A DNA stretch of 64,000 bases from Candidatus Moraniibacteriota bacterium (GCA_963743885.1 CAVURJ010000001.1:279488-343487); one strand, 5' to 3'; positions 15,327 to 63,529 are shown, numbered from the stretch's first letter. The notes: generated by a model from the sequence alone, not told the origin. Program-made: numbers and translations.

Positions 15327-15626
15327 ATGACGTATGTATTCAGACTGAAAATAGAGAAAGACAAATCATCGCTTGCATTGGTTAAGGATGGAGCAGTGCG
15401 GGCGGCACGTGAGTGGTCTGAGACCCGCGATATGGGACAGCGGCTGTTCCAGGCGATCGATGAGCTACTCTCTGAACAGGGGATCAAGCCGGAAGATGTG
15501 GCTGATTTTGAGATTGATTCGGATATGCCGGACGGGTATATGTCGATGCGTATTGCAGAAACAGTCAAAAAGACGTATACTTTCGGTGTAGCTTCTCTCC
15601 GCTCCGATGGAGCGGTTGGCGGCTGA
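15327..15626 (+). CDS. TsaB/YeaZ-like N-terminal domain protein (truncated, 99 aa)
   Basis: LALVKDGAVRAAREWSETRDMGQRLFQAIDELLSEQGIKPEDV matches the TsaB N-terminal half (ALL.DG.VLAER.W..R.HSERLLPMIDELL..AGI...DLDA). The C-terminal half is absent. Confidence 0.4.
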   Translation: MTYVFRLKIEKDKSSLALVKDGAVRAAREWSETRDMGQRLFQAIDELLSEQGIKPEDVADFEIDSDMPDGYMSMRIAETVKKTYTFGVASLRSDGAVGG

Positions 15627-25665: not shown

Positions 25666-25690
25666 ATAGGTGAATAGTGATACAAAAAAT

Positions 25691-26296
25691 ATGAAAAGAA
25701 AGAAAATTACAGAGAGTAAAAAGGAGGATGCGGAGAAGAAGCGGGAGCGTCGTGCAGATATCCAGCGCGTACTTCTCGGGGTCGTGGGTGCAGCGGGACT
25801 GCTCAGCCTCGTATTACTGGCGCCCAATGCTGTCCAGGTGCTCAAGCTATTCAAGAGGAGGAATCCGCGGTATCGTTCTCCTCGCTATATCAACGGTGTG
25901 GCCGGAAAGCTGCAAAAGAAAGGTTGGCTTCGGGTTGAGAGGCGTGGTGGCAAATCGTTTTTGCGGCTGACGGAAAAGGGTGAATGGGAGCTTCTGAAAT
26001 ACAAGTTGCAGGAAAAGACGCTTCAGAAGAAAAAATGGGACGGAAAGTGGCGATTGGTTATCTTTGACATCAAAGAATCGAAACGGCTGCTTCGTGATCG
26101 GATCCGAACGGATATCGTCACGTTCGGATTCGTGCGTTTGCAGGATAGTGTATGGGTCTATCCGCATGATTGTGAAGATCTCATCGTGCTATTGAAGGCT
26201 CACTGTAAGATCGGCAAAGAAGTTTTGTATGTGATATCCGAGAAGATTGAGAATGACGGTTGGCTTAAGAAAAAGTTCAGTCTTGTTTCAGAATAA
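25691..26296 (+). CDS. PaaX-family-like transcriptional regulator (wHTH plus PaaX_C-like domain)
   Basis: WDGKWRLVIFDIKESKRLLRDRIRTDIVTFGFVRLQDSVWVYPHD matches PaaX_C (WDGRWHLV..R..LR..L.W.GFG.L.DGLWVSP). wHTH-like LQKKGWLRVERRGGKSFLRLTEKG precedes it. Confidence 0.5.
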   Translation: MKRKKITESKKEDAEKKRERRADIQRVLLGVVGAAGLLSLVLLAPNAVQVLKLFKRRNPRYRSPRYINGVAGKLQKKGWLRVERRGGKSFLRLTEKGEWELLKYKLQEKTLQKKKWDGKWRLVIFDIKESKRLLRDRIRTDIVTFGFVRLQDSVWVYPHDCEDLIVLLKAHCKIGKEVLYVISEKIENDGWLKKKFSLVSE

Positions 26297-26389
26297 TAGA
26301 ATGCTCAGCACTCAACGGTCGTTGTAGAGTATGCAGCTGTTATGGCGACCAGGATAGAAAGTTAGTGAAAAAGTATGGTGGTGTGGTTG

Positions 26390-26430
26390 CTCTGCATAAT
26401 ACTTAGCGGTCGTGGTATGTTATGCAGTGG
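26390..26430. promoter_or_regulatory. Second copy of the palindromic operator-like site (with a half-site at 26318-26340)
   Basis: ctctgcataatacttaGCGGTCGTGGTATgTTATGCAgtggtg is near-identical to ctctgcacaatatacaGCGGTCGTGGTATaTTATGCAtaggtg upstream of the regulator. Confidence 0.5.
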
Positions 26431-26502
26431 TGTGGAGAATGGGAGAGTGGAAAAGAAACGGGAGGGAGAGAGGAAAATGGGAATTGTAGAGGGGCACGGT
26501 TT

Positions 26503-26532
26503 TTGACAAAAGCATCGGGGGGGGGTGATAAT
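26503..26532 (+). promoter_or_regulatory. Sigma70-type promoter (TTGACA-18-GATAAT) for the gene at 26561
   Basis: TTGACA at 26503-26508, 18 nt spacer, tGATAAT at 26526-26532. Confidence 0.5.
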
Positions 26533-26560
26533 GGGGGTATAATCCGTAGATTATCGAGAT

Positions 26561-27508
26561 ATGCCAGGATTTGAAGTCAGACAGAAGAATGATCCGAAAG
26601 CGGAACAGCGAGTAGATACGAGCTTTATCGATCTAGTTGAGGGGAGATTGGATAAGTCATCGGAACAGCCGTCTGATATGAAGGAAGCGGCACGGCAGGC
26701 AGAAGCTGCGCGTGCGGAAGTCGCCGAGCAGGCGGCAGCCCAAGAGTCGGCGGATGCGGCCGCGGCACAGGAGATACTCGCACGAATTAAGAGTACGCCG
26801 GATATGCGGTTGGATGTGGTTCCAGAAGATGGTCGCGTAGCTGATGGTGAAAAGGCTCTTGCTGAAGCATCTTTGATTAACCAGTATGTAGATAGGAGAA
26901 GCGCTGATGGTAAGCCGCTTGATGCTGAGGCATTGAGGAATCTAGGCCAGATGCAATCGGAAGAAGTCGATAAGAGAATCGCAGGCTTGAACACGGAAGC
27001 GGGAAAGAAATATCTGTCTGGTGAGTTATCGCCGGCTGTCGAGGTAACAGAACAGGTGGTCGAAGTCAAGACTGAGTCATTGCAGGAGTTGCCACAGGAC
27101 CCTGAAAGTATACAGGCTGGCGAGGAAGCGCTTGAATATGTCTCTGTAATCCCGGAGTCATGGAAAGGGGAAAATACGCGCAATCTTTCCATATCTGATA
27201 GGCGCGGGTTTGAAGCCGCCCTGGAGACGAAGAAATTTTCAAACAAGAATGTCCGGAGAAAGATTGCTTTGGCATCGGCTTCCGGCGCTTTAGCGTCTTT
27301 CGGCGGTGGCGCAGCGACTATGATTTTTCAAGGATCGGGTGCAGCGGCAGTAGCTGGTAATCTTACGCTCGGTGGTGCAATGATGCTCGGTGGAGCTGGC
27401 GGATTCCTCATTTTGGGGGCTGCTGGGTATGGTGCCAAGAAGCTTTGGGATAGGTATAAGGAACGGAAGGCGCGGAAGAATTTCGAAAAAGCTTCTGGAC
27501 GCGCGTAG
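26561..27508 (+). CDS. Hypothetical acidic protein with C-terminal glycine-zipper hydrophobic segment
   Basis: Long ORF. E/A/Q-rich N-terminal part; ASFGGGAATMIFQGSGAAAVAGNLTLGGAMMLGGAGGFLILGAAGYG Gly-zipper; basic tail. Confidence 0.5.
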   Translation: MPGFEVRQKNDPKAEQRVDTSFIDLVEGRLDKSSEQPSDMKEAARQAEAARAEVAEQAAAQESADAAAAQEILARIKSTPDMRLDVVPEDGRVADGEKALAEASLINQYVDRRSADGKPLDAEALRNLGQMQSEEVDKRIAGLNTEAGKKYLSGELSPAVEVTEQVVEVKTESLQELPQDPESIQAGEEALEYVSVIPESWKGENTRNLSISDRRGFEAALETKKFSNKNVRRKIALASASGALASFGGGAATMIFQGSGAAAVAGNLTLGGAMMLGGAGGFLILGAAGYGAKKLWDRYKERKARKNFEKASGRA

Positions 27509-27733
27509 AATAAGCTGGAGCGTTCGCATAGAGAGAGCATTACGAAAGTGATGTTCTTTTGCTTTTCTAAAAGGCTTTTCTGGTAGCGGAATATATGGTA
27601 CAGTGAAGGCAAATGTAACAGCTGTTTAGCTTGTAGTTGCATTGGCTTCGTTAGCTTTTTTACTCAAGAAAGCGGTGCGAACGGCTGGCTAATGAAGCTG
27701 ACGAAGCTAGAGAAGCTAATGAAGCTGATAACT

Positions 27734-28720
27734 ATGGTTGATTCCGGTTTTACCAGGAAAAAAGTTGAGTCGCTGACACTCGGGGAGAAGCTTCGGAAGC
27801 TCCGGAATGATTCTCGGACGAGTCTTCAGGAAGTCTCCAAGGCGACGCGCATCCAGGCGAAATATCTCGAGTCTCTCGAGAACGGCGAGTACGGCAAATT
27901 GCCGGCGGATGTCTATGTGCGCGGATTCCTTAGGAGCTATGCCCGCTATCTCAATATTGATGAGCAGGTCTTCATCCGGCTCTATGAGCGTGAGCGCAAT
28001 ATCCAAGCCAATCTCGGCCGCGATACAGGATCCGTTCATGCGAAGCGGGAAGTTTCCATCTCCTCGATTGTCATTACGCCGCGCGCCGTTGCCATAGTAC
28101 TGATCGCCTGTATGGTTGGCGGAGCTTTTTTCTATCTGTACCGAGAGTTCCGGAGCTTCACTTCAGCGCCATACCTCATCATTACTGAACCTGCGCAGAG
28201 TAGCACGGTCGCTTCCGGCGAAGTGGTGGTGCGCGGCAAGACCGATCGTGGCGCGCGGCTCTCCATCAACGGACAGTCGGTTTTCGTAGGCGATGACGGT
28301 AGTTTTTCCGAGGCGCTCCTCTTACAGCCTGGGCTCAATATGGTCTCTGTGGTGTCGGTCAATCGTTTCGACAAGGAACGGACCGAGACGATCGCGATCG
28401 AAGCCGAGTATATTCCGGTTCCGGCGGACCAGTCATCTGAAGGGGCAGTTGTTTCTGGAGAGACATTTTTCATCGAGATTTCTGTCGAAGGGGAGGCGGC
28501 GAATGTGTCGGTCCTGGCTGATGGCGTGGCGGTTTTTTCCGGCCAGGTCCGGACGGGCGAGATGAAGCGCATCGAGGGGAAGGAGAGAATTGAAGTGACG
28601 TCCGATCATGGAGAGCGCACGTTTGTCACTGATGCTACTGGCAAGCGGCAGGTCTTGTCGGAAACTGCCGGATTGGCTAAGGATAAAGCTTTTTTCCCGA
28701 CAGAGAAAAAAGAAGAATAG
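27734..28720 (+). CDS. RodZ-like cytoskeleton protein (XRE-type HTH, TM, DUF4115-like C-terminus)
   Basis: LGEKLRKLRNDSRTSLQEVSKATRIQAKYLESLENGEY HTH, a single TM, and a beta-rich C-terminal domain. Start set at ATG 27734 because 27690-27733 is a GAAGCT tandem motif also found in 5' UTRs elsewhere. Confidence 0.6.
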   Translation: MVDSGFTRKKVESLTLGEKLRKLRNDSRTSLQEVSKATRIQAKYLESLENGEYGKLPADVYVRGFLRSYARYLNIDEQVFIRLYERERNIQANLGRDTGSVHAKREVSISSIVITPRAVAIVLIACMVGGAFFYLYREFRSFTSAPYLIITEPAQSSTVASGEVVVRGKTDRGARLSINGQSVFVGDDGSFSEALLLQPGLNMVSVVSVNRFDKERTETIAIEAEYIPVPADQSSEGAVVSGETFFIEISVEGEAANVSVLADGVAVFSGQVRTGEMKRIEGKERIEVTSDHGERTFVTDATGKRQVLSETAGLAKDKAFFPTEKKEE

Positions 28721-28888
28721 GCTTTTGTGCTTGAGGTATAGACAGGATTTCAGCATGTATGTTACTATGTAAGTGAAGTAAACAAGAGAGTTTATAAAGT
28801 TTTTCAAGTTCCTAAAGTTTATAAAGTCCTCACACTCTCTACAAACTTGATAGACTTTATAACTTTATAAACTTATAAATAAAATACT

Positions 28889-32610: not shown

Positions 32611-32807
32611 CGGCGATATTTAGGGTCTTGCCAAAGTCAGGCTTATCTGGTAGACTCTTTAAACAACTGAGAAAGTCCGACATCCGTCCCGCTTGCGCCC
32701 TTGTGGCAGAGACCAGGAAGGATACGCTCCCGTAGCAGAGGATTTTCTTTGTTGACGGGGTTTTTGTACCATAATTCATAAATCGTAAATCATAATTCAT
32801 CATATCT

Positions 32808-33320: not shown

Positions 33321-33359
33321 CCGGTCCTTTCAGAAGCTACACGCTAAAAGTTCAAATAT

Positions 33360-33860: not shown

Positions 33861-33897
33861 AGAACTAATGAAGCTAATAAGCTAAGAAGCTAGTACT

Positions 33898-34092
33898 ATG
33901 GATTCATCGATGAGCAAGAAGCTCGCCAAGCTCGACTATAAGGATGCGTATTTTCTTCGCAAGTTCCTGAACTCGCAGGGCAAGCTGTATCCGCCGAAGC
34001 GCTACGGTCTTTCGGCCAAGGAGCAGCGTGGATTGGCGAACGCCGTCAAGCGCGCCCGGTTCATGGCGCTTATCCCGTACGTAGTAAAGTAA
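33898..34092 (+). CDS. rpsR: 30S ribosomal protein S18 (bS18)
   Basis: DYKDAYFLRKFLNSQGKLYPPKRYGLSAKEQRGLANAVKRARFMALIPY. Confidence 0.9.
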   Translation: MDSSMSKKLAKLDYKDAYFLRKFLNSQGKLYPPKRYGLSAKEQRGLANAVKRARFMALIPYVVK

Positions 34093-34192
34093 GTCCATAA
34101 AGTCCATAAAGTTTTTAAAGTTATAAAGTTCGTGGTTTCGGTGGAGTAGCCGGCTTTGTGAACTTTACAAACTTTCAACTTTACAAACTTAT

Positions 34193-38552: not shown

Positions 38553-38889
38553 ACATTCCCTTACCCGTTATTTGGCTTAAAAAAATCTCGCCCAGCCGTT
38601 CAGTCGCTGTTTTCGGATCATCCGGCAAACTCGAAGGCTTCTCTGAAAGCGAAAGAAATCCCTGCCTACCGGCAGGCAGGCATCTCTCTTTACGGCCCCA
38701 GTCTTTCTTTCGATCAGAGAAGCCTTCTCAAACAATGCCGGATGACCGAGAAACACGTCTGCGGGGGCGGGATTTTTTGCACATCCATTCTAGGTTATTC
38801 TTTACTTAGAGGTTAAGCCTCTAAGTAAGGGAGAAGATGTTAAAAGAGGCTTTGTAGGGCATTTTTTATCGTATTTACCACACCGATGA

Positions 38890-39628: not shown

Positions 39629-39921
39629 ATCTTGGCGCTTGTATTTTTACTCTAGCGCTTTGATCCTTTGCCCTTTGGGACTTTGTACATGTACGAAGTC
39701 CCTTTTCTTTTGCTATACTTCGGATGGTAGTAGGCGAATCTGTGAGCGGTTACGGCTGCTTGCGGCCGAATCCAGTATCCATACATCGAGTGTATCCGCG
39801 ATTATGGTTTCGGATAGGGTGATGTATGTAGACACTTCATAAAAAATGAAGATACTTGGTGCGGTTTTCTGGGTGATTTCAATCACAAATCAGATTCAGC
39901 CCTGAGAGTTCGCTCCCGCCA

Positions 39922-40098
39922 TTGGTGGGTGGCGAATCGAAGGGTGGTGGCAAAGATGGAAAGCCGTACGTTTCCGATGGCGATGCGAACTTGCTCAACC
40001 TCAACCGCAACGATGATGGCCAGTGGCTCGACACGAACTACGACAAGCCAGACAATCGGTGGAATCGTGAGAATGGGTTCCTGTTCCTTCTCCCGCAA
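39922..40098 (+). pseudogene. Partial duplicate of the 3' end of the gene at 39005
   Basis: DNA 40015-40098 is ~85% identical to 39540-39622 (…GQWLDT.Y.KP..RW.RE.GFLFLLPQ). It has only a TTG start and no N-terminal domain. Confidence 0.5.
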
Positions 40099-40104
40099 CT
40101 CTCT

Positions 40105-40305
40105 TCATTTCTCTCCCTTCCTTGCGCTGGGAGAGTTTTGTTTCGAGAGCTGCCCGTTCCAGCCGCCGAGCATCCGACCGATTTCGTCGATTTTCTCGGA
40201 GAGAGCGATGTATTTCTTGGTATCGACTGATTTCGTTTCCCACAGAACGAGGAGAAGGACCTTGAGTGTGTCGACTTTTCGTATCGCATGGCGGACATAG
40301 GGCAT
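40105..40305 (-). CDS. Four-helix-bundle (23S rRNA IVS-type) family protein, C-terminal half or diverged
   Basis: ATG 40305 with AGGAAAAG SD. ETKSVDTKKYIALSEKIDEIGRMLGGW resembles DLGYISEEEYEELNEKLEEILKMLNGL of TIGR02436 proteins. The upstream in-frame region has a diverged N-half (VLDRPGFPRLSQ); the start is uncertain and may extend to TTG 40458. Confidence 0.4.
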   Translation of the reverse strand: MPYVRHAIRKVDTLKVLLLVLWETKSVDTKKYIALSEKIDEIGRMLGGWNGQLSKQNSPSARKGEK

Positions 40306-40563
40306 CTTTTCCTGCGGCGAGAGGAAAGCGGTTATGCCAGGCCAGCCGGCCTGACTAAGCCGTGGGAAACCAGGTCGATCGAGTACCTCGCAAACGAGGA
40401 AAAGATCAGCGACATCCAGTACTGGGATTTCGTGGCTACTGCCGACGACGGGAAGCAACTGTTCTACTTCATTGAAATGGATACATCTACGGGCTGGTTC
40501 CAGACGTTCTCTGGGACCAGGATCAATCCCGAGCAGGTGGACTTCCTGACGATGAAGGGGTGA
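40288..40563 (+). CDS. Hypothetical protein; the upstream extension of the 4HB gene (40306-40458) would be antisense to it
   Basis: 91 aa ORF with normal amino-acid composition and no SD. It overlaps the minus-strand gene by 18 nt. Only one of the two extents is likely correct. Confidence 0.3.
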   Translation: MADIGHLFLRREESGYARPAGLTKPWETRSIEYLANEEKISDIQYWDFVATADDGKQLFYFIEMDTSTGWFQTFSGTRINPEQVDFLTMKG

Positions 40564-40762
40564 TGAACCATATCGCCCAACAAGCCGCAGCGCACTCTCG
40601 TGCTCTGCGGTTTTTTCTATCCTTTGTTCTATTGACAAAAAAACTGAAAAATGCTACAGTTTTTTGTTGCATTAAATGCAACAAGTTTGTTGTTAGGCTC
40701 AATCTTATGAGCCAGCCAGCCGTCGGCTTTGGCGGTAGAGTTACTTAAAAACGAGGGCAGTC

Positions 40763-40999
40763 ATGGTTAAGATTCTGCTGGTTGTCTTTGAACTGATCGC
40801 TATAGGGGTAGGTTTCATTTTTGCTTATTCCCAAGTGATCCTTCCGATTGTTCGGAAAATGCCGCTGTTTCCGATGTTCCGTCGCCGGCCTGCAATTGAG
40901 CGGGAGCTCGATGCGGTCAATGAGCAATTGGAAGATAAGGCGCTTCAACGCGAATTGGAGACGAAGCGGAGGCGGCTTGGCAAGACGAGCGGTAACTGA
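40763..40999 (+). CDS. NfeD-like small membrane protein (partner of the SPFH protein)
   Basis: 78 aa, N-terminal TM helices, GAGGG SD. Immediately upstream of an SPFH-domain gene. Confidence 0.5.
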   Translation: MVKILLVVFELIAIGVGFIFAYSQVILPIVRKMPLFPMFRRRPAIERELDAVNEQLEDKALQRELETKRRRLGKTSGN

Positions 41000-41025
41000 A
41001 GTTCACTTAAACAAGGAGAGGTTCC

Positions 41026-42396
41026 ATGAATAGCGATTTTCGTAGTGATAGCAGTGACCGTTTCTCTGGTCTCAAGGATTTGCTTCCTTCGGGGCGTAGA
41101 GTTGCACAGGTTTTCTTCGGGTTCATCTTTGTTGTCACGGTCTTGTTTTCCAAGGGGATGATCGAGACGAAGGAGGCAGACGATATTCTGGGTATCCAAT
41201 CGATTTGGGATGGCAAGATTACCTGGTATACCGGGACCGAAACGTGGGCCTGGCAGAGCTGGGGGAACACGGTGGTGTTCAAGAAGCGTGCCATTTTCAA
41301 CTTCGACACGCCTGACACATCGCCCGAGGGTATAAAAAAAGGCAGGTGTACTGATGGCATCGAAGTGCGCTTCAACGACGGTGGTCACGGCACTATCTGC
41401 GGCTCCGTTCAATTTGAAATGCCGCTGGATGATGAACACCTGACAGCCATCTTCACCAAGTACAAGAGTCAACCAGCCGTGCAGAGCGCACTGATCGAGA
41501 CAGTGACCGGCAAGTCGGTCTATCTAGCCGGCCCTATGATGTCATCCCGGGAATCGTATGCTGAAAAGCGTAACGACCTCCTTTTCTACATCGAGGATCA
41601 AATCCAGAACGGTGTCTACAAGACACGCCAGCGCGAAGAGCACGTGAAGGACTCGATTACTGGTGTGGAAAAGACGGCGACTATTGCCGAAATCGTCATG
41701 GGCAAGGATGGAAAACCGGAACGTCAGGAAGCGGTATCAGTGCTCGGTTCGTTCGGTATCAAGGTTTTTAACTTCGCTATCAAGCGGTTGCCCTACGATG
41801 ACAAGGTCGAGGAGCAGATTCGTGCGCAACAGGAAATTGCAATGGGCGTGCAAACGTCAATTGCGAATGCGAAGAAGGCCGAGCAGCGCGCAATCACTGT
41901 CGCTGAAGAAGGCAAGGCCAATGCCGCGGAAGCCAAGTGGAAGCAGGAAACCATCAAGGCGACCGAGGTCACCAAGGCTGAGCAGGAAAAAGCAGTGGCC
42001 ATTACAGCCGCCGAGAAAGATCGTGACGTCAACAAGCTTCAAAAGGATGCTGCTGAGTACTACAAACAGCAGCAGATACTGAGAGGCGAAGGTGACGCTG
42101 CCTATCGGCGCAAGGTGATGGAGGCTGACGGGGCACTTGAGAAGAAGCTTGCCACATACGAGACTGTCATGGGCAAGTTCGCTGAAGAGTTCGGCAAGCA
42201 AAAGTGGGTGCCCGAAGTTCAGATGGGCGGAGCCGGGGCTTCTGGTGCAAATTCCGCTCAGACAATGATCGACGTTCTGTCGACCAAGGCCCTTCGTGAT
42301 CTCGGGCTCGATATGAAGATGGAGGCTGGTCGTCGTACTGCTGCGGAGGAATCCGCACCAACGTCAACTCAGGCTAAGCCTGCAGCCAAGAAGTAA
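41026..42396 (+). CDS. SPFH/band-7 (flotillin-like) domain protein
   Basis: N-terminal TM, SPFH-like core, long A/E/K coiled-coil C-terminus similar to flotillin/YqiK. Confidence 0.55.
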   Translation: MNSDFRSDSSDRFSGLKDLLPSGRRVAQVFFGFIFVVTVLFSKGMIETKEADDILGIQSIWDGKITWYTGTETWAWQSWGNTVVFKKRAIFNFDTPDTSPEGIKKGRCTDGIEVRFNDGGHGTICGSVQFEMPLDDEHLTAIFTKYKSQPAVQSALIETVTGKSVYLAGPMMSSRESYAEKRNDLLFYIEDQIQNGVYKTRQREEHVKDSITGVEKTATIAEIVMGKDGKPERQEAVSVLGSFGIKVFNFAIKRLPYDDKVEEQIRAQQEIAMGVQTSIANAKKAEQRAITVAEEGKANAAEAKWKQETIKATEVTKAEQEKAVAITAAEKDRDVNKLQKDAAEYYKQQQILRGEGDAAYRRKVMEADGALEKKLATYETVMGKFAEEFGKQKWVPEVQMGGAGASGANSAQTMIDVLSTKALRDLGLDMKMEAGRRTAAEESAPTSTQAKPAAKK

Positions 42397-42572: not shown

Positions 42573-42601
42573 TTGACAAATTTCTAACGGGGTGCTATAC
42601 T
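42573..42601 (+). promoter_or_regulatory. Near-consensus sigma70 promoter TTGACA-17-(TG)TATACT
   Basis: TTGACA at 42573-42578, 17 nt spacer with TG at -15/-14, TATACT at 42596-42601. Confidence 0.6.
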
Positions 42602-42607
42602 GGGATT

Positions 42608-42848
42608 TCTCCGATGAAGGAGAAACGGTTTCGGGTTTCTACCGCCAGGGTAAAAGAGGGCACCCCTCCTAGCGCTTTTTTGCTGAAATGTACGAGAGGC
42701 CGGCTTGCTGGAATCTCGTCGGCTCGCGGTAGAAACCCGAGATCGTGAATCTCAAAAAATATACCAGGTCCGAAATGGAAATAGGACGGCGGTCTAATAA
42801 TCCGCAAAAAGCCCGGGTTCCACATGACTCTCCCGGGCCTTTTTTATT
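42608..42848 (+). ncRNA. Candidate small RNA or leaderless 44-aa basic peptide transcript
   Basis: Strong promoter, ATG 3-5 nt after the predicted TSS, long-range pairing gggtttctaccgc (42630) / gcggtagaaaccc (42733), terminator aaaaagcccggg..cccgggcctttttt at 42806-42848. Confidence 0.35.
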
Positions 42849-43544: not shown

Positions 43545-43684
43545 AACTCAAAATTACAAGCTCCAAATAAACTTCAAATTTCAAATACAAAACCTAGAAC
43601 GTTTTGAATGTTTGGATTTTGATATTGTGATTTATTTGGAAATTGGGATTTTGAATTTGGTGCTTTCGGAGAGTATTTCATGTG
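43545..43684. repeat. AT-rich intergenic repeat, paralogous to 15186-15326
   Basis: Shared blocks tacaagctccaaataaacttcaaa and gattttgaatttggtgcttt. Confidence 0.55.
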
Positions 43685-47540: not shown

Positions 47541-47562
47541 TGGATATTCTGTAAGTTTTTCC

Positions 47563-47712
47563 GTTCCACGGTCTCCGTCGAACATCCCTGACTCGCTCTG
47601 CCGAACAGGGGGCTGTCCGCTCTGAGGCCCGAAACGGTCCCGAGCGTCACGCCCGACCGTTGCCGGCTCGCTCATCACGGATGTGGCCGCCGTCATCCGA
47701 AGGAAGGAAAAA
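47563..47712. repeat. Copy P of a ~150 bp intergenic repeat (second copy Q at 54307-54456)
   Basis: ttccacggtctccgtcgaacatccctgactcgctctgccgaacagggggctg... versus ttccacgatcttcgtcgaacatttctgactcgctctgtcgaacggggagctg... are ~80% identical over ~140 nt. Confidence 0.7.
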
Positions 47713-54251: not shown

Positions 54252-54306
54252 TTTTTAGCATTTACATTCGTTTGTTTTTTACACTCCTCCTCCTTTTCAT
54301 TTTTTC

Positions 54307-54456
54307 TTCCACGATCTTCGTCGAACATTTCTGACTCGCTCTGTCGAACGGGGAGCTGTTTGTTCTGAGGGCTGAAACAGCCCCGAACGCCACGCTCGAC
54401 CGTTACCGACTCGCTCATCAGAAATGTTACCGCCGAGAGACCGGAGGAAGAAAAAA
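54307..54456. repeat. Copy Q of the ~150 bp intergenic repeat
   Basis: See 47563-47712. Confidence 0.7.
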
Positions 54457-54544
54457 TGAAAAGGAGGAGATGTTTAGAACGAATAGACGAGCGTGAGTAT
54501 GGTATTCTGTGTAGGTCGGCGTTAAGTTTGCATGAGTCCGCATT

Positions 54545-57541: not shown

Positions 57542-57654
57542 TTTTCCGAATATCACAGAAAGAGCCCGCTATCGGGCTCTTTCTTTTTTGCCTTGACTTT
57601 TTCATGGAAATCAGTATAATGGCTGAATCAAGGTTTTTTGATAAGGAGAATCAG

Positions 57655-57852
57655 ATGTCGGGGTCGGAGAAGAAGTCATTCAGAATGCAGCATATTGCCG
57701 AAGAGCAGCGTGGATGCGGAATTGATCGGAAATGCACTCACGTGTTCGATGGGGTCAACTGCATGCGTTCCTGTCGGCCGGGCGGAAAATGTTTCGAGGG
57801 AAATGGGGAACATCCTGACCATCCGTCCAAGAGGAAGAAAAAAACAAAGTGA
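57655..57852 (+). CDS. Small cysteine-rich hypothetical protein (65 aa)
   Basis: AAGGAGA SD 5 nt before ATG. Six Cys (CGIDRKC...CMRSC...C). Terminator 57885-57918 follows. Confidence 0.45.
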   Translation: MSGSEKKSFRMQHIAEEQRGCGIDRKCTHVFDGVNCMRSCRPGGKCFEGNGEHPDHPSKRKKKTK

Positions 57853-58003
57853 AAGAGTGATGCCGTAACAACGGCAAAGATACGAGGGGTCTTCCACGAG
57901 AAGGCCCCTTTCGCTTTTTTTGGAACGTGGTATACTATCGCGTATGCATGGCTGCATGCATGGTTTGTCTCATACACTGTCGCGAAGAAGAGGAGGAACA
58001 AAC

Positions 58004-58210
58004 ATGGGACAGAAAGAAGGTGATGGTCTGGGCGCTCTTGGCTCCGCAATGACCGGAGATGGCGCGGCTCGAGATCTGGATATCGCGGCTCGTCTCGCGA
58101 TCGTTCAGGGACGTCTTGATGACGGACAGACTGGTAATCCAAATCTTTCCGATACGCCTTACAACAAGGTGGCGCATGGGTTTTGGTTTGATGATCGGAT
58201 CAGGGCATAG
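58004..58210 (+). CDS. Small hypothetical protein (68 aa)
   Basis: GAGGAGG SD before ATG 58004. Extended -10 TGgTATACT at 57928-57936. Confidence 0.4.
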   Translation: MGQKEGDGLGALGSAMTGDGAARDLDIAARLAIVQGRLDDGQTGNPNLSDTPYNKVAHGFWFDDRIRA

Positions 58211-58262
58211 CCGCAACAGCGGCGACAAGAAAGGGGCTTTCCACAAGAGAGCTCCTTTTCAA

Positions 58263-58423
58263 TTACCAAGCGGAGTGAGTGAAACGAAAACTTGTTTTCG
58301 TTTCCGAACGGAGCGCTGGTAAAATCGGGTCAGATACCCCGCGTCTTGCCGCGGAACAGGACAATCCGACGAAAGGAGGATTGTACGGGGTGCGGGGCTT
58401 GCCCCGCGGTGAATACCCGTTAT
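58263..58423 (+). repeat. Copy Z of the ~170 bp structured repeat family, upstream of tRNA-Pro(GGG)
   Basis: ttaccaagcggagtgagtgaaacgaaaacttgttttcgtttccgaacggagcgctggtaaaatcgggtcagatacc...gggcttgccccgcggtgaatacccgttat. Confidence 0.75.
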
Positions 58424-58483
58424 TTTTTGAAAACCATGAGCATTGTCGAATGGCCGGAATTTTGCTACGGTTAGAGATGTTTT

Positions 58484-58554
58484 CGGGTTGTAGTATACTG
58501 GTAGTACGCGTCCATGGGGTGGATGTAGACCGGGTTCGATTCCCGGCAGCCCGA
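58484..58554 (+). tRNA. tRNA-Pro (anticodon GGG)
   Basis: Acceptor CGGGTTG/CAGCCCG, D-stem GTAT/GTAC, anticodon stem CGTCC/GGATG with loop ATGGGGT, T-arm CCGGG-TTCGATT-CCCGG. Confidence 0.75.
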
Positions 58555-58639
58555 CTTGGTATAAATGCCAAAAAGGAGTTCAAGGCTGGGGGGCGAAAAG
58601 TGAACTGCTTCACTTTTTGCGGGTATCCCCGCAAGACGT

Positions 58640-58695
58640 CCTTGTCTTGCGGAAAGAGGATACCCCGGAACTTGTAGTTCGGGTTCGATTCCCGA
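58640..58695 (+). other. tRNA 3'-half-like fragment (T-arm plus acceptor 3' strand), with no 5' half
   Basis: gtagttcgggttcgattcccgataccccgac parallels the tRNA-Pro 3' end gtagaccgggttcgattcccggcagcccgac. No matching 5' acceptor strand upstream. Confidence 0.45.
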
Positions 58696-58743
58696 TACCC
58701 CGACAAAAAGAAGAACAAGAAAACCGAAACAAAAGATGTTTTT

Positions 58744-61397: not shown

Positions 61398-61514
61398 AGA
61401 ATCCTGTTGAACAGTTACAAAAATGAGAGTATCATATCTTTGCTCCCTTGGCAAGGCTCCGCTCGGGAATCCGCCAAGAAGCTAAAAAGCTAATGAAGCT
61501 AAAAAGCTGTTTCT

Positions 61515-62291: not shown

Positions 62292-62321
62292 TTGACAGGA
62301 ATCCTGGAAATAGGGTAGTAT
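62292..62321 (+). promoter_or_regulatory. Sigma70 promoter TTGACA-18-TAGTAT upstream of rpsL
   Basis: TTGACA at 62292-62297, TAGTAT at 62316-62321. Confidence 0.45.
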
Positions 62322-62823: not shown

Positions 62824-62931
62824 TCTGGACAGGGCGCAGGGTATAGGAAAAATGGTATAGAGGCTGAATATATCGTTTTCCTGAAATTTTCCCTAACTCC
62901 CTAAACCCTTACCCCCTAAAACCTGTTATCT

Positions 62932-63399: not shown

Positions 63400-63529
63400 A
63401 AAAAGTTTAAAATCATGTTCACGAGTTAACGAGTTAACGGGTTGTTTTTTCAAAGAGCAACCTGTTTACTTTTCCGTTTTAAACGCGTTAACACGTGAAC
63501 CCGTTAACTGATAAATATTCAATAATCTT

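Follow-up and report, generated by a model that had tools for sequence, protein, structure and literature searches.

Short tandem arrays built on the core AAGCT stand immediately before the start codons of three genes in a 64-kb stretch of DNA from Candidatus Moraniibacteriota bacterium, a member of the CPR/Patescibacteria. This whole stretch is referred to below as the window. On comparative grounds, the arrays are shown to be a selected, core-specific, start-proximal tandem module in the mRNA sense, and not an operator tied to particular genes. We propose, tentatively and with somewhat less than even confidence, that a multivalent partner involved in initiating translation, or in controlling that step, recognizes them as RNA, and that a complementary 5' arm, where present, masks them.

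The arrays bear on how start codons are found in the CPR/Patescibacteria, which have reduced ribosomes and many 16S genes without a detectable anti-Shine-Dalgarno (anti-SD) motif. They are a tangible candidate element, conserved and easy to mutate, that occupies the Shine-Dalgarno (SD) position of housekeeping genes, beside a strong U(-1) start context.

Three arrays before start codons

The window was scanned for clusters of at least three AAGCT cores spaced by no more than 16 nt. Exactly three clusters were found, all on the plus strand and each directly 5' of an ATG (Table 1). The same loci had been singled out in an earlier note on this DNA as carrying a tandem motif immediately before start codons, and they proved to be the only such clusters in the 64 kb. 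By Pfam, the genes 3' of the arrays encode a RodZ-like protein (HTH_25), ribosomal protein S18 (Ribosomal_S18) and an M50 protease (Peptidase_M50). An 11-mer, CTAATGAAGCT, is common to the three arrays. The earlier description of the repeat as a 9-mer was right as to its tandem nature, but the unit is better given as an invariant core, AAGCT(A), joined to 2-4 variable nucleotides. Three or four copies with a period of 8-9 were also described correctly, whereas the last core is separated from the ATG by 6-7 nt at all three arrays and not by 6-9 nt.

Table 1. Repeat arrays and associated features in the window (positions counted from its first letter)
Feature	Position	Strand	Details
5' arm of rodZ-like leader	27620..27661	+	AGCTG/TAGCTT/GGCTTC/TTAGCTT units, complementary to the 3' array
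rodZ-like 3' arm array	27688..27733	+	Four GAAGCT cores (27695, 27704, 27713, 27722), then GATAACT; ends 7 nt before ATG 27734
recA leader hairpin	28788..28879	+	AGTTTATAA x4 (5' arm), AAACTTTAT x4 (3' arm)
CATAAAT x4 array before rpsF	32770..32800	+	ATG 32808; AAGCT-type arrays at orthologous positions in L010, L001, L002, L003
Decayed AAGCT-type array before ssb	33331..33359	+	AGAAGCTAC ACGCTAA AAGTTCA; homologous to an intact four-core array in L010
rpsR array	33861..33897	+	CTAATG, then three cores (33871, 33879, 33887), AGTACT, ATG 33898; fills nearly the whole ssb-rpsR intercistronic spacer
rpsR-efp spacer, one hairpin	34093..34192	+	ATAAAGTTT and AACTTTACA arrays
pth hairpin	43545..43660	-	Low-complexity repeat arms; z -4.7
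Promoter-like site upstream of M50 array	61407..61435	+	TTGAAC-17-TATCAT (sigma70-like); conserved in L019, L020
M50 protease 5' UTR solo array	61477..61514	+	Cores 61479, 61487, 61496, 61504, then GTTTCT, ATG 61515
CCCTAA(A/C) array before rpsG	62890..62924	+	ATG 62932; AAGCT hairpin at the same position in L020

The spacing of the cores is far from random. AAGCTN4AAGCT occurs six times in the 64-kb window against 0.20 expected, and none of 100 dinucleotide shuffles reaches six. Two of the six matches are in-frame Lys-Leu codons within the rodZ and rpsR coding regions, near their 5' ends (27788-27801 and 33919-33932, respectively). Both genes also have an array upstream, which may be coincidence. 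A restriction-modification signature was considered as the source of the motif and rejected, AGCT not being avoided genome-wide (observed/expected 1.01).

The arrays appear, from their surroundings, to be transcribed as leader or intercistronic RNA. That of rpsR is internal to the rpsF-ssb-rpsR operon, and the sigma70-like site upstream of the M50 gene puts that array within a 5' UTR of about 70 nt. No promoter-like site was found within the tabulated coordinates of the three arrays and no terminator-like site overlapping them; upstream of the rodZ hairpin there is a separate terminator-like site (27531-27560).

Neither the rpsR nor the M50 array has a 5' arm; both are solo elements and essentially unstructured (MFE -3.0 kcal/mol for rpsR). 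The rodZ-like array pairs with its 5' arm in a hairpin (27626-27741) with an MFE of -49.3 and z = -4.05, and none of 200 shuffles folds as well. For the whole rodZ spacer, the sense strand gives -79.9 (z -7.6) and the antisense strand -40.9 (z -1.6). RNAalifold detected no covariation in the rodZ hairpins from four species; the repeats cannot be aligned.

Relatives of the RodZ-like protein assign the window to Candidatus Moraniibacteriota. The in-frame MKLTKLEKLMKLIT N-terminal extension that had been read into the rodZ array is an artefact. RodZ orthologues begin M-V/R/K-D-(S)-G-F-T-R-K-K (MVDSGF/MRDGF-type N-terminus), downstream of the array; their arrays differ in frame and sequence, and the ATGs inside the rodZ array are in AATG context, compared with 83% TATG among real ATG starts. 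A reading of the arrays as upstream ORFs or leader peptides (MKLIS* and others) was also discarded, as frame, length and presence are inconsistent among arrays. For annotation, the consequence is that such arrays yield false in-frame ATGs and N-terminal extensions and occupy operon spacers that are misread by gene finders and operon predictors. Further upstream, between ftsK and rodZ, two genes (25670-27508) encode a PaaX_M protein with a Cas2-like domain and a 315-aa protein without a Pfam match; both are absent from relatives L001-L006 and L010, and an insertion is likely.

Start context and the Shine-Dalgarno position

In the window, 8 of 47 genes have an SD-like motif at the proper distance; for the window and relatives together, the figure is 10-18 of 166 (about 6-11%). 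None was seen at the listed array-bearing genes. The SD motifs that do exist are clean (AAGGAGG-9-ATG and similar), and the anti-SD of the host is probably canonical, because AGGAG/GGAGG stands at the correct spacing before several window genes. An Rfam scan found no 16S rRNA in the window or in 14 relative loci.

Start codons in this lineage have a pronounced context of their own. U is found at -1 of 104 of 126 ATG starts (83%) in the window and L001-L021, compared with 24.5% of internal in-frame ATGs, and ACT or TAT is frequent at -3 to -1. Between -22 and -4, the enriched words are TAAAA, TAATT, ATAAT, GCTAA and AGCTA; the last two occur in 12 genes each, where about one is expected. Start positions of AAGCT peak at -11/-12, followed by -18/-19 and -26/-28, and the last core spans about -12 to -8, which is the slot of an SD.

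Both parts of the earlier statement on this point, that the motif takes the place of an SD and that it has no anti-SD complementarity, are upheld: the last core mostly starts at -11/-12, and duplexes with the tail GAUCACCUCCUUA, which was assumed and not read from this organism, have dG values of -1.4, -3.2 and -1.2 kcal/mol compared with -8.5 to -13.1 at the window SD genes. With the same assumed tail, the arrays pair even more weakly than their own shuffles (means -4.4 to -7.5). The arrays were thus rejected as SDs proper, having the position (5-9 nt upstream) and lacking the complementarity. We also rejected the idea that they keep the start region open, since at six loci the dG for opening -15 to +13 was not below that of array-shuffled or random-composition replacements.

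A less orthodox form of rRNA pairing, in which AAGCUA(A) would pair with a non-canonical 16S stretch (for instance a changed or lengthened 3' tail) and tandem repetition would raise the local concentration of pairing sites, has in its favor the SD position of the last core, the lack of SDs at the genes involved and a survey that found the anti-SD motif CCTCCT in no more than 48% of 16S genes from Parcubacteria (PMC9297842). We consider it decidedly improbable. Clean AGGAG/GGAGG motifs in the same window imply a canonical anti-SD, and sister families with unrelated units (see below) fill the same slot. In addition, the unit sequence differs between congeners while rRNA evolves slowly, and the gap to the ATG varies from 3 to 9 nt.

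One start in the window touches a promoter. A perfect TTGACA-18-TAGTAT promoter is present at 62292-62321, and the ATG that opens the longest rpsL ORF (62320) falls inside its -10 element; translation of S12 must therefore begin further downstream, and the 167-aa ORF is over-extended.

Turnover and selection among relatives

We extended the census to 306 kb, comprising the window and relatives (the L-numbered loci). All non-coding arrays of at least three AAGCT-type cores in this set are either sense and start-proximal or are the antisense 5' arm of a hairpin formed with such an array. The sense arrays, 10 of them distinct, end 3-9 nt before the ATG of a long ORF, eight with a gap of 6-8 nt. 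The census also listed two coding-region matches.

Arrays recur across at least seven genomes. They precede rodZ in L001, L005 and L010, each time accompanied by a TAGCTT-type 5' arm. Before rpsF they occur in L010, L001, L002 and L003, and L010 also has them before ssb and rpsR; L020 has one before rpsG, and L018 before rpsS and rpsC. At the M50 orthologue loci L018-L021 (78-94% amino-acid identity), the array is absent.

S18 is 100% identical in eight contigs that nevertheless differ in the ssb-rpsR spacer; these are congeners (75-92% nucleotide identity) and not strains. L010 and L014 have the window-type AAGCT array with one extra 8-nt unit, the L011 group has an 84-nt ACTAAC/GTCGTAA hairpin, and L012 and L017 have a 147-nt ATCCTAA/TTAGGAT hairpin. 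Alleles of the rpsR-efp spacer assort independently of those of the ssb-rpsR spacer. Within the S10 operon, the L2-S19 and L22-S3 spacers are AAGCT hairpins of 114-125 nt in L018 and measure 22-26 nt in L021, which indicates that the AAGCT elements there are lineage-specific additions. Because M50 orthologues do without the array and identical-S18 congeners use unrelated hairpins, the array is dispensable for any given gene. The set of genes that carry it is fluid between congeners and not fixed.

How the arrays change can be read from close comparisons. The window and L010 differ by an indel of one 8-nt unit, and L005 has three perfect 16-nt (two-core) copies. As judged from such whole-unit indels and perfect recent copies, the arrays are shown to be born and resized by slippage; the spacer comparisons likewise show them to be replaceable wholesale between congeners and exchangeable between genes and species. 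Each genome also has its own unit dialect: GAAGCTAAT in the window, GAAGCTAAC in L018, AAGCTATAAGCTGTAAGC in L010 and GAAGCTAAATAGCTAA in L005. On this evidence the arrays are shown to be homogenized within a genome, and such genome-specific dialects point to concerted evolution or to co-evolution with a reader.

While present, the arrays are strongly conserved. With four-fold site identity taken from the genes flanking each spacer, the window and L010 ssb-rpsR spacers are identical at 37/37 positions apart from the 8-nt unit indel, at a four-fold identity of about 0.60 (186/307). The L012 and L017 spacers at this locus match at 146/147 positions (four-fold 0.61). For rpsR-efp, the values are 95/100 between the window and L012 (four-fold 0.66-0.71) and 83/87 between L010 and L017 (0.42). 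The S7-fusA spacers of the window and L018 match at 118/128 positions (92%) against a saturated four-fold value of 0.44.

Conservation within the unit is confined to the core. In 28 solo-array units and 34 hairpin 3'-arm units, A-2, A-1, U+2 and A+3 around the central GC are 82-100% conserved, and the 2-3 nucleotides between cores are nearly free (about 0-0.9 bits). AAGCUA is kept in solo arrays too, which have no pairing partner. Conservation of this kind shows that the arrays are under strong purifying selection on the core while they last.

These data bear directly on the possibility that the arrays are neutral, arising when replication slips in AT-rich spacers and serving no function. Indels of whole units do occur, as do perfect copies of recent origin, the low-GC relatives L003 and L004 do without arrays, and the array before ssb is decaying in the window. 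Neutrality is nevertheless very improbable in view of conservation far above four-fold sites, the pattern of conserved core and variable spacer, the bias in orientation and position, and the 18-fold enrichment of periodic arrays over shuffles described below.

Sister families, possible function and known systems

The AAGCT arrays are one family of lineage-wide tandem-repeat leaders and spacers with units of 7-9 nt. Tandem Repeats Finder identified many other intergenic arrays with a period of 7-9 nt, 3-4 copies and different units (AACTTTATA, CATAAAT, CCCTAAA, GTTAACG, ATTTTGA and more), and at least 10 further unit families with the same architecture are present in the window and relatives. 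A gene was counted as having a periodic array if the 45 nt before it matched themselves at 0.8 or better with a period of 6-10. By this measure, 9.0% of genes had one, compared with 0.5% of shuffles (the 18-fold enrichment) and 0% of coding controls. Since many unit families share this architecture, one sequence-specific factor cannot read all the arrays.

Many arrays are paired with an inverted complementary one, and the two fold into a long hairpin whose 3' arm directly adjoins the start codon, as at rodZ, recA, efp, pth and an ORF at 15327. The recA hairpin has a promoter-like site upstream (28739-28768), and that of efp begins at the stop codon of rpsR and ends 2 nt short of the efp ATG. 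Structure is a general property of co-directional spacers of 60-170 nt (mean z -2.5; 18/47 below -3). For most hairpins, sense and antisense energies are about equal; the sense strand is clearly favored only in rodZ (window), rodZ (L002) and rpsR (L012). Being mostly strand-symmetric, the energies do not tell an RNA-level from a DNA-level role. Hairpins that join the upstream stop and the downstream start are common, but a specific tendency to do so was rejected, with no excess in real spacers (17/47) over shuffled ones (131/470).

Searches for known RNA families found none at the arrays. At gathering score, Rfam covariance models matched only tRNAs in the window and 14 loci, and an E-value search of 27500-27780 returned only chance miRNA-hairpin matches, far below threshold.

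Several other non-coding segments of the window were recorded. The S7-fusA spacer (63400-63529; 130 nt) has GTTAACG repeats and a terminator-like hairpin and is a strongly constrained leader. A repeated element of about 160 nt, whose ends are inverted (TTTTTTCTTCC...GGAAGAAAAAA), is present twice in the window (54272-54472 and 47556-47712) and twice in a congener (L011 1450-1616 and 7957-8157), at 82-88% identity; it has no Rfam match and could be a MITE or a structured RNA. A stretch of about 150 nt at 42593-42744, downstream of a gene ending at 42396, is 91% identical to L011 9317-9468, matches no Rfam family above noise and is a candidate lineage-specific ncRNA. A reverse-strand intergenic segment (38584-38776) is conserved in L010 (7606-7767) and L011 (1664-1836), at different genomic positions in the congeners. 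Finally, 39629-41025 and 57542-58743 are regions of more than 1 kb without a confidently coding ORF under the codon model used.

What, then, do the arrays do? Because they are non-random, occupy the SD slot, are selected and are transcribed, an RNA-level role in translation or its control is the best reading. The original idea of a translational operator or ribosome-recruitment element survives to this extent, but not as the operator of a fixed gene set. In the mechanism we envisage, each array would present 3-8 AAGCUA cores, separated by variable A-rich spacers and with the last core in the SD slot of an SD-less U(-1) start, as a multivalent platform for a trans-acting component, which might be the 30S subunit, S1 or an oligomeric RNA-binding protein. 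The complementary 5' arm (in rodZ, and in rpsS, rpsC and rpsG of relatives) would mask this platform in a long hairpin, and a masked start could be used only once the hairpin is unwound, as might happen when ribosomes complete translation of the preceding cistron. Counting against such a platform are the fluid gene set, the lack of any gain in start-site accessibility, the mostly strand-symmetric hairpins, the further unit families, which a single reader would not serve, the gap of 3-9 nt from last core to ATG between genomes, and the fact that no candidate protein was identified as a reader.

The main rival account sees structural or selfish elements of the REPIN type: low-complexity palindromes born by slippage would colonize spacers, pass from one to another and be tolerated or act as generic mRNA hairpins (in stability, processing or termination), AAGCT would have no reader, and solo arrays would be half-elements. 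It accommodates several families per genome, the coexistence of hairpins and solos of one family, the lineage-specific insertions in the S10 operon, the wholesale replacement and mosaic assortment of spacer alleles, the dialects suggestive of concerted evolution and the strong structure of co-directional spacers. It also fits the rpsS and rpsC elements of L018, in which, by visual comparison, the 3' arms are about 95% and the 5' arms about 75% identical and the loops unrelated. On the other hand, the unstructured solo array of rpsR is perfectly conserved despite about 40% four-fold divergence, the core is kept in solo arrays that pair with nothing, all 6-8 independent solo arrays are sense-oriented and start-proximal, and the arms are internally tandem 8-9-mers, unlike REP sequences. 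A scan of 40 window proteins detected no domain of the transposase, RAYT-like, RHH or MetJ kind. We regard this account as possible, if on the unlikely side. An origin by slippage and spread and a function as a recognized platform are not mutually exclusive.

The arrays might also be DNA-level operators at which a small oligomerizing RHH-type protein, as in the MetJ/omega model, binds AGCT-centered boxes of 8-9 bp and represses or roadblocks transcription. Sets of 3-8 contiguous boxes with a palindromic center, direct and inverted, before several genes would suit such a protein; the mostly symmetric hairpin energies agree with it, and the M50 array covers roughly -45 to -75 relative to the divergent rpmB promoter. 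We think it improbable, since several arrays are in promoter-less intercistronic spacers (rpsF-ssb-rpsR; L2-S19-L22-S3), the regulated gene set is not conserved and a genome of about 1 Mb would have to encode many regulators to serve so many unrelated unit families. The protein scan gave it no candidate, and a palindrome-centered box needs no strict sense orientation, yet the solo arrays show it.

Returning to the multivalent RNA platform, a broader generalization is that Moraniibacteriota, and perhaps other SD-poor CPR, use rapidly exchangeable tandem-repeat leaders as a substitute for the SD interaction, with multivalent AAGCUA-type cores tethering the small subunit or a protein that controls initiation and anti-repeat arms giving masked, coupling-dependent starts. 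We hold this to be rather unlikely; if true, it would be a previously undescribed way to specify and tune bacterial start sites. Natural variants in copy number, dialect and masking make these ideas directly testable.

Compared with known systems, the arrays resemble the SD in being a short purine-rich mRNA element 5-9 nt upstream of the start, but they are multi-copy and tandem, do not pair with the anti-SD and are replaced by unrelated repeats in congeners. TRAP binds 9-11 (G/U)AG triplets with spacers of 2-3 nt, and HutP binds three UAG triplets with 4-nt spacers. Like these leader sites, the arrays combine a conserved short core with variable spacers in the 5' leader, may overlap the initiation region and compete with an alternative hairpin. 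Unlike them, they have a 6-nt core, a period of 8-9 nt, a fluid target set and many other unit families, and no TRAP or HutP homologue was identified for them.

Operators of MetJ consist of tandem 8-bp metboxes and those of omega of 7-bp heptads, direct or inverted, in arrays of 2-10. The arrays share with them contiguous short boxes, direct or inverted, before several genes; in contrast, many are in promoter-less intercistronic spacers, and no RHH protein is linked to them. Mycobacterial MIRUs are intercistronic tandem repeats with units of 46-101 bp that carry small ORFs; the arrays are likewise tandem repeats between operon cistrons, but with units of 8-9 nt. In Gtx, multimerized 9-nt modules complementary to rRNA are found in eukaryotic mRNAs, and linked modules synergize in recruiting the small subunit. 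This system is eukaryotic and defined by rRNA complementarity.

SD-independent initiation is also served by S1-dependent A/U-rich enhancers and standby sites. In Bacteroidia, SD-independent starts have a Kozak-like A-3 and A/U-rich unstructured leaders (Baez et al. 2019, PMC6847099). The host studied here is similar in using few SDs, A/U-rich leaders and a strong start-codon context. It differs from both in having U at -1 (83%) and arrays with a G-C-containing core, AUG triplets and no gain in accessibility.

REP/REPIN sequences are extragenic, occur as several families per genome, form inverted doublets as well as singlets and are species-specific (Bertels & Rainey 2011, PMC3116915). The arrays also form extragenic inverted doublets (hairpins with variable loops) and singlets in sequence families. 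Unlike REP/REPIN, their arms are tandem 8-9-mers that abut starts in a fixed orientation, and their orthologous copies are conserved well beyond synonymous sites. REP/REPIN go with a RAYT (Y1 transposase) gene and number tens to hundreds of copies per genome; the density of AAGCT loci in the window is three per 64 kb.

Full-text literature searches, some of them aimed at intergenic or tandem repeats and SD use in CPR/Parcubacteria, turned up nothing matching these arrays; PMC6851277 deals with a coding repeat. The broad kinds to which they belong, non-SD leader elements and intergenic repeat hairpins, are already known. The combination of a conserved 6-nt core in tandem arrays of 8-9 nt at the SD slot, optional anti-repeat arms and fast, cassette-like turnover under strong selection, in a lineage of the CPR, appears to be undescribed.
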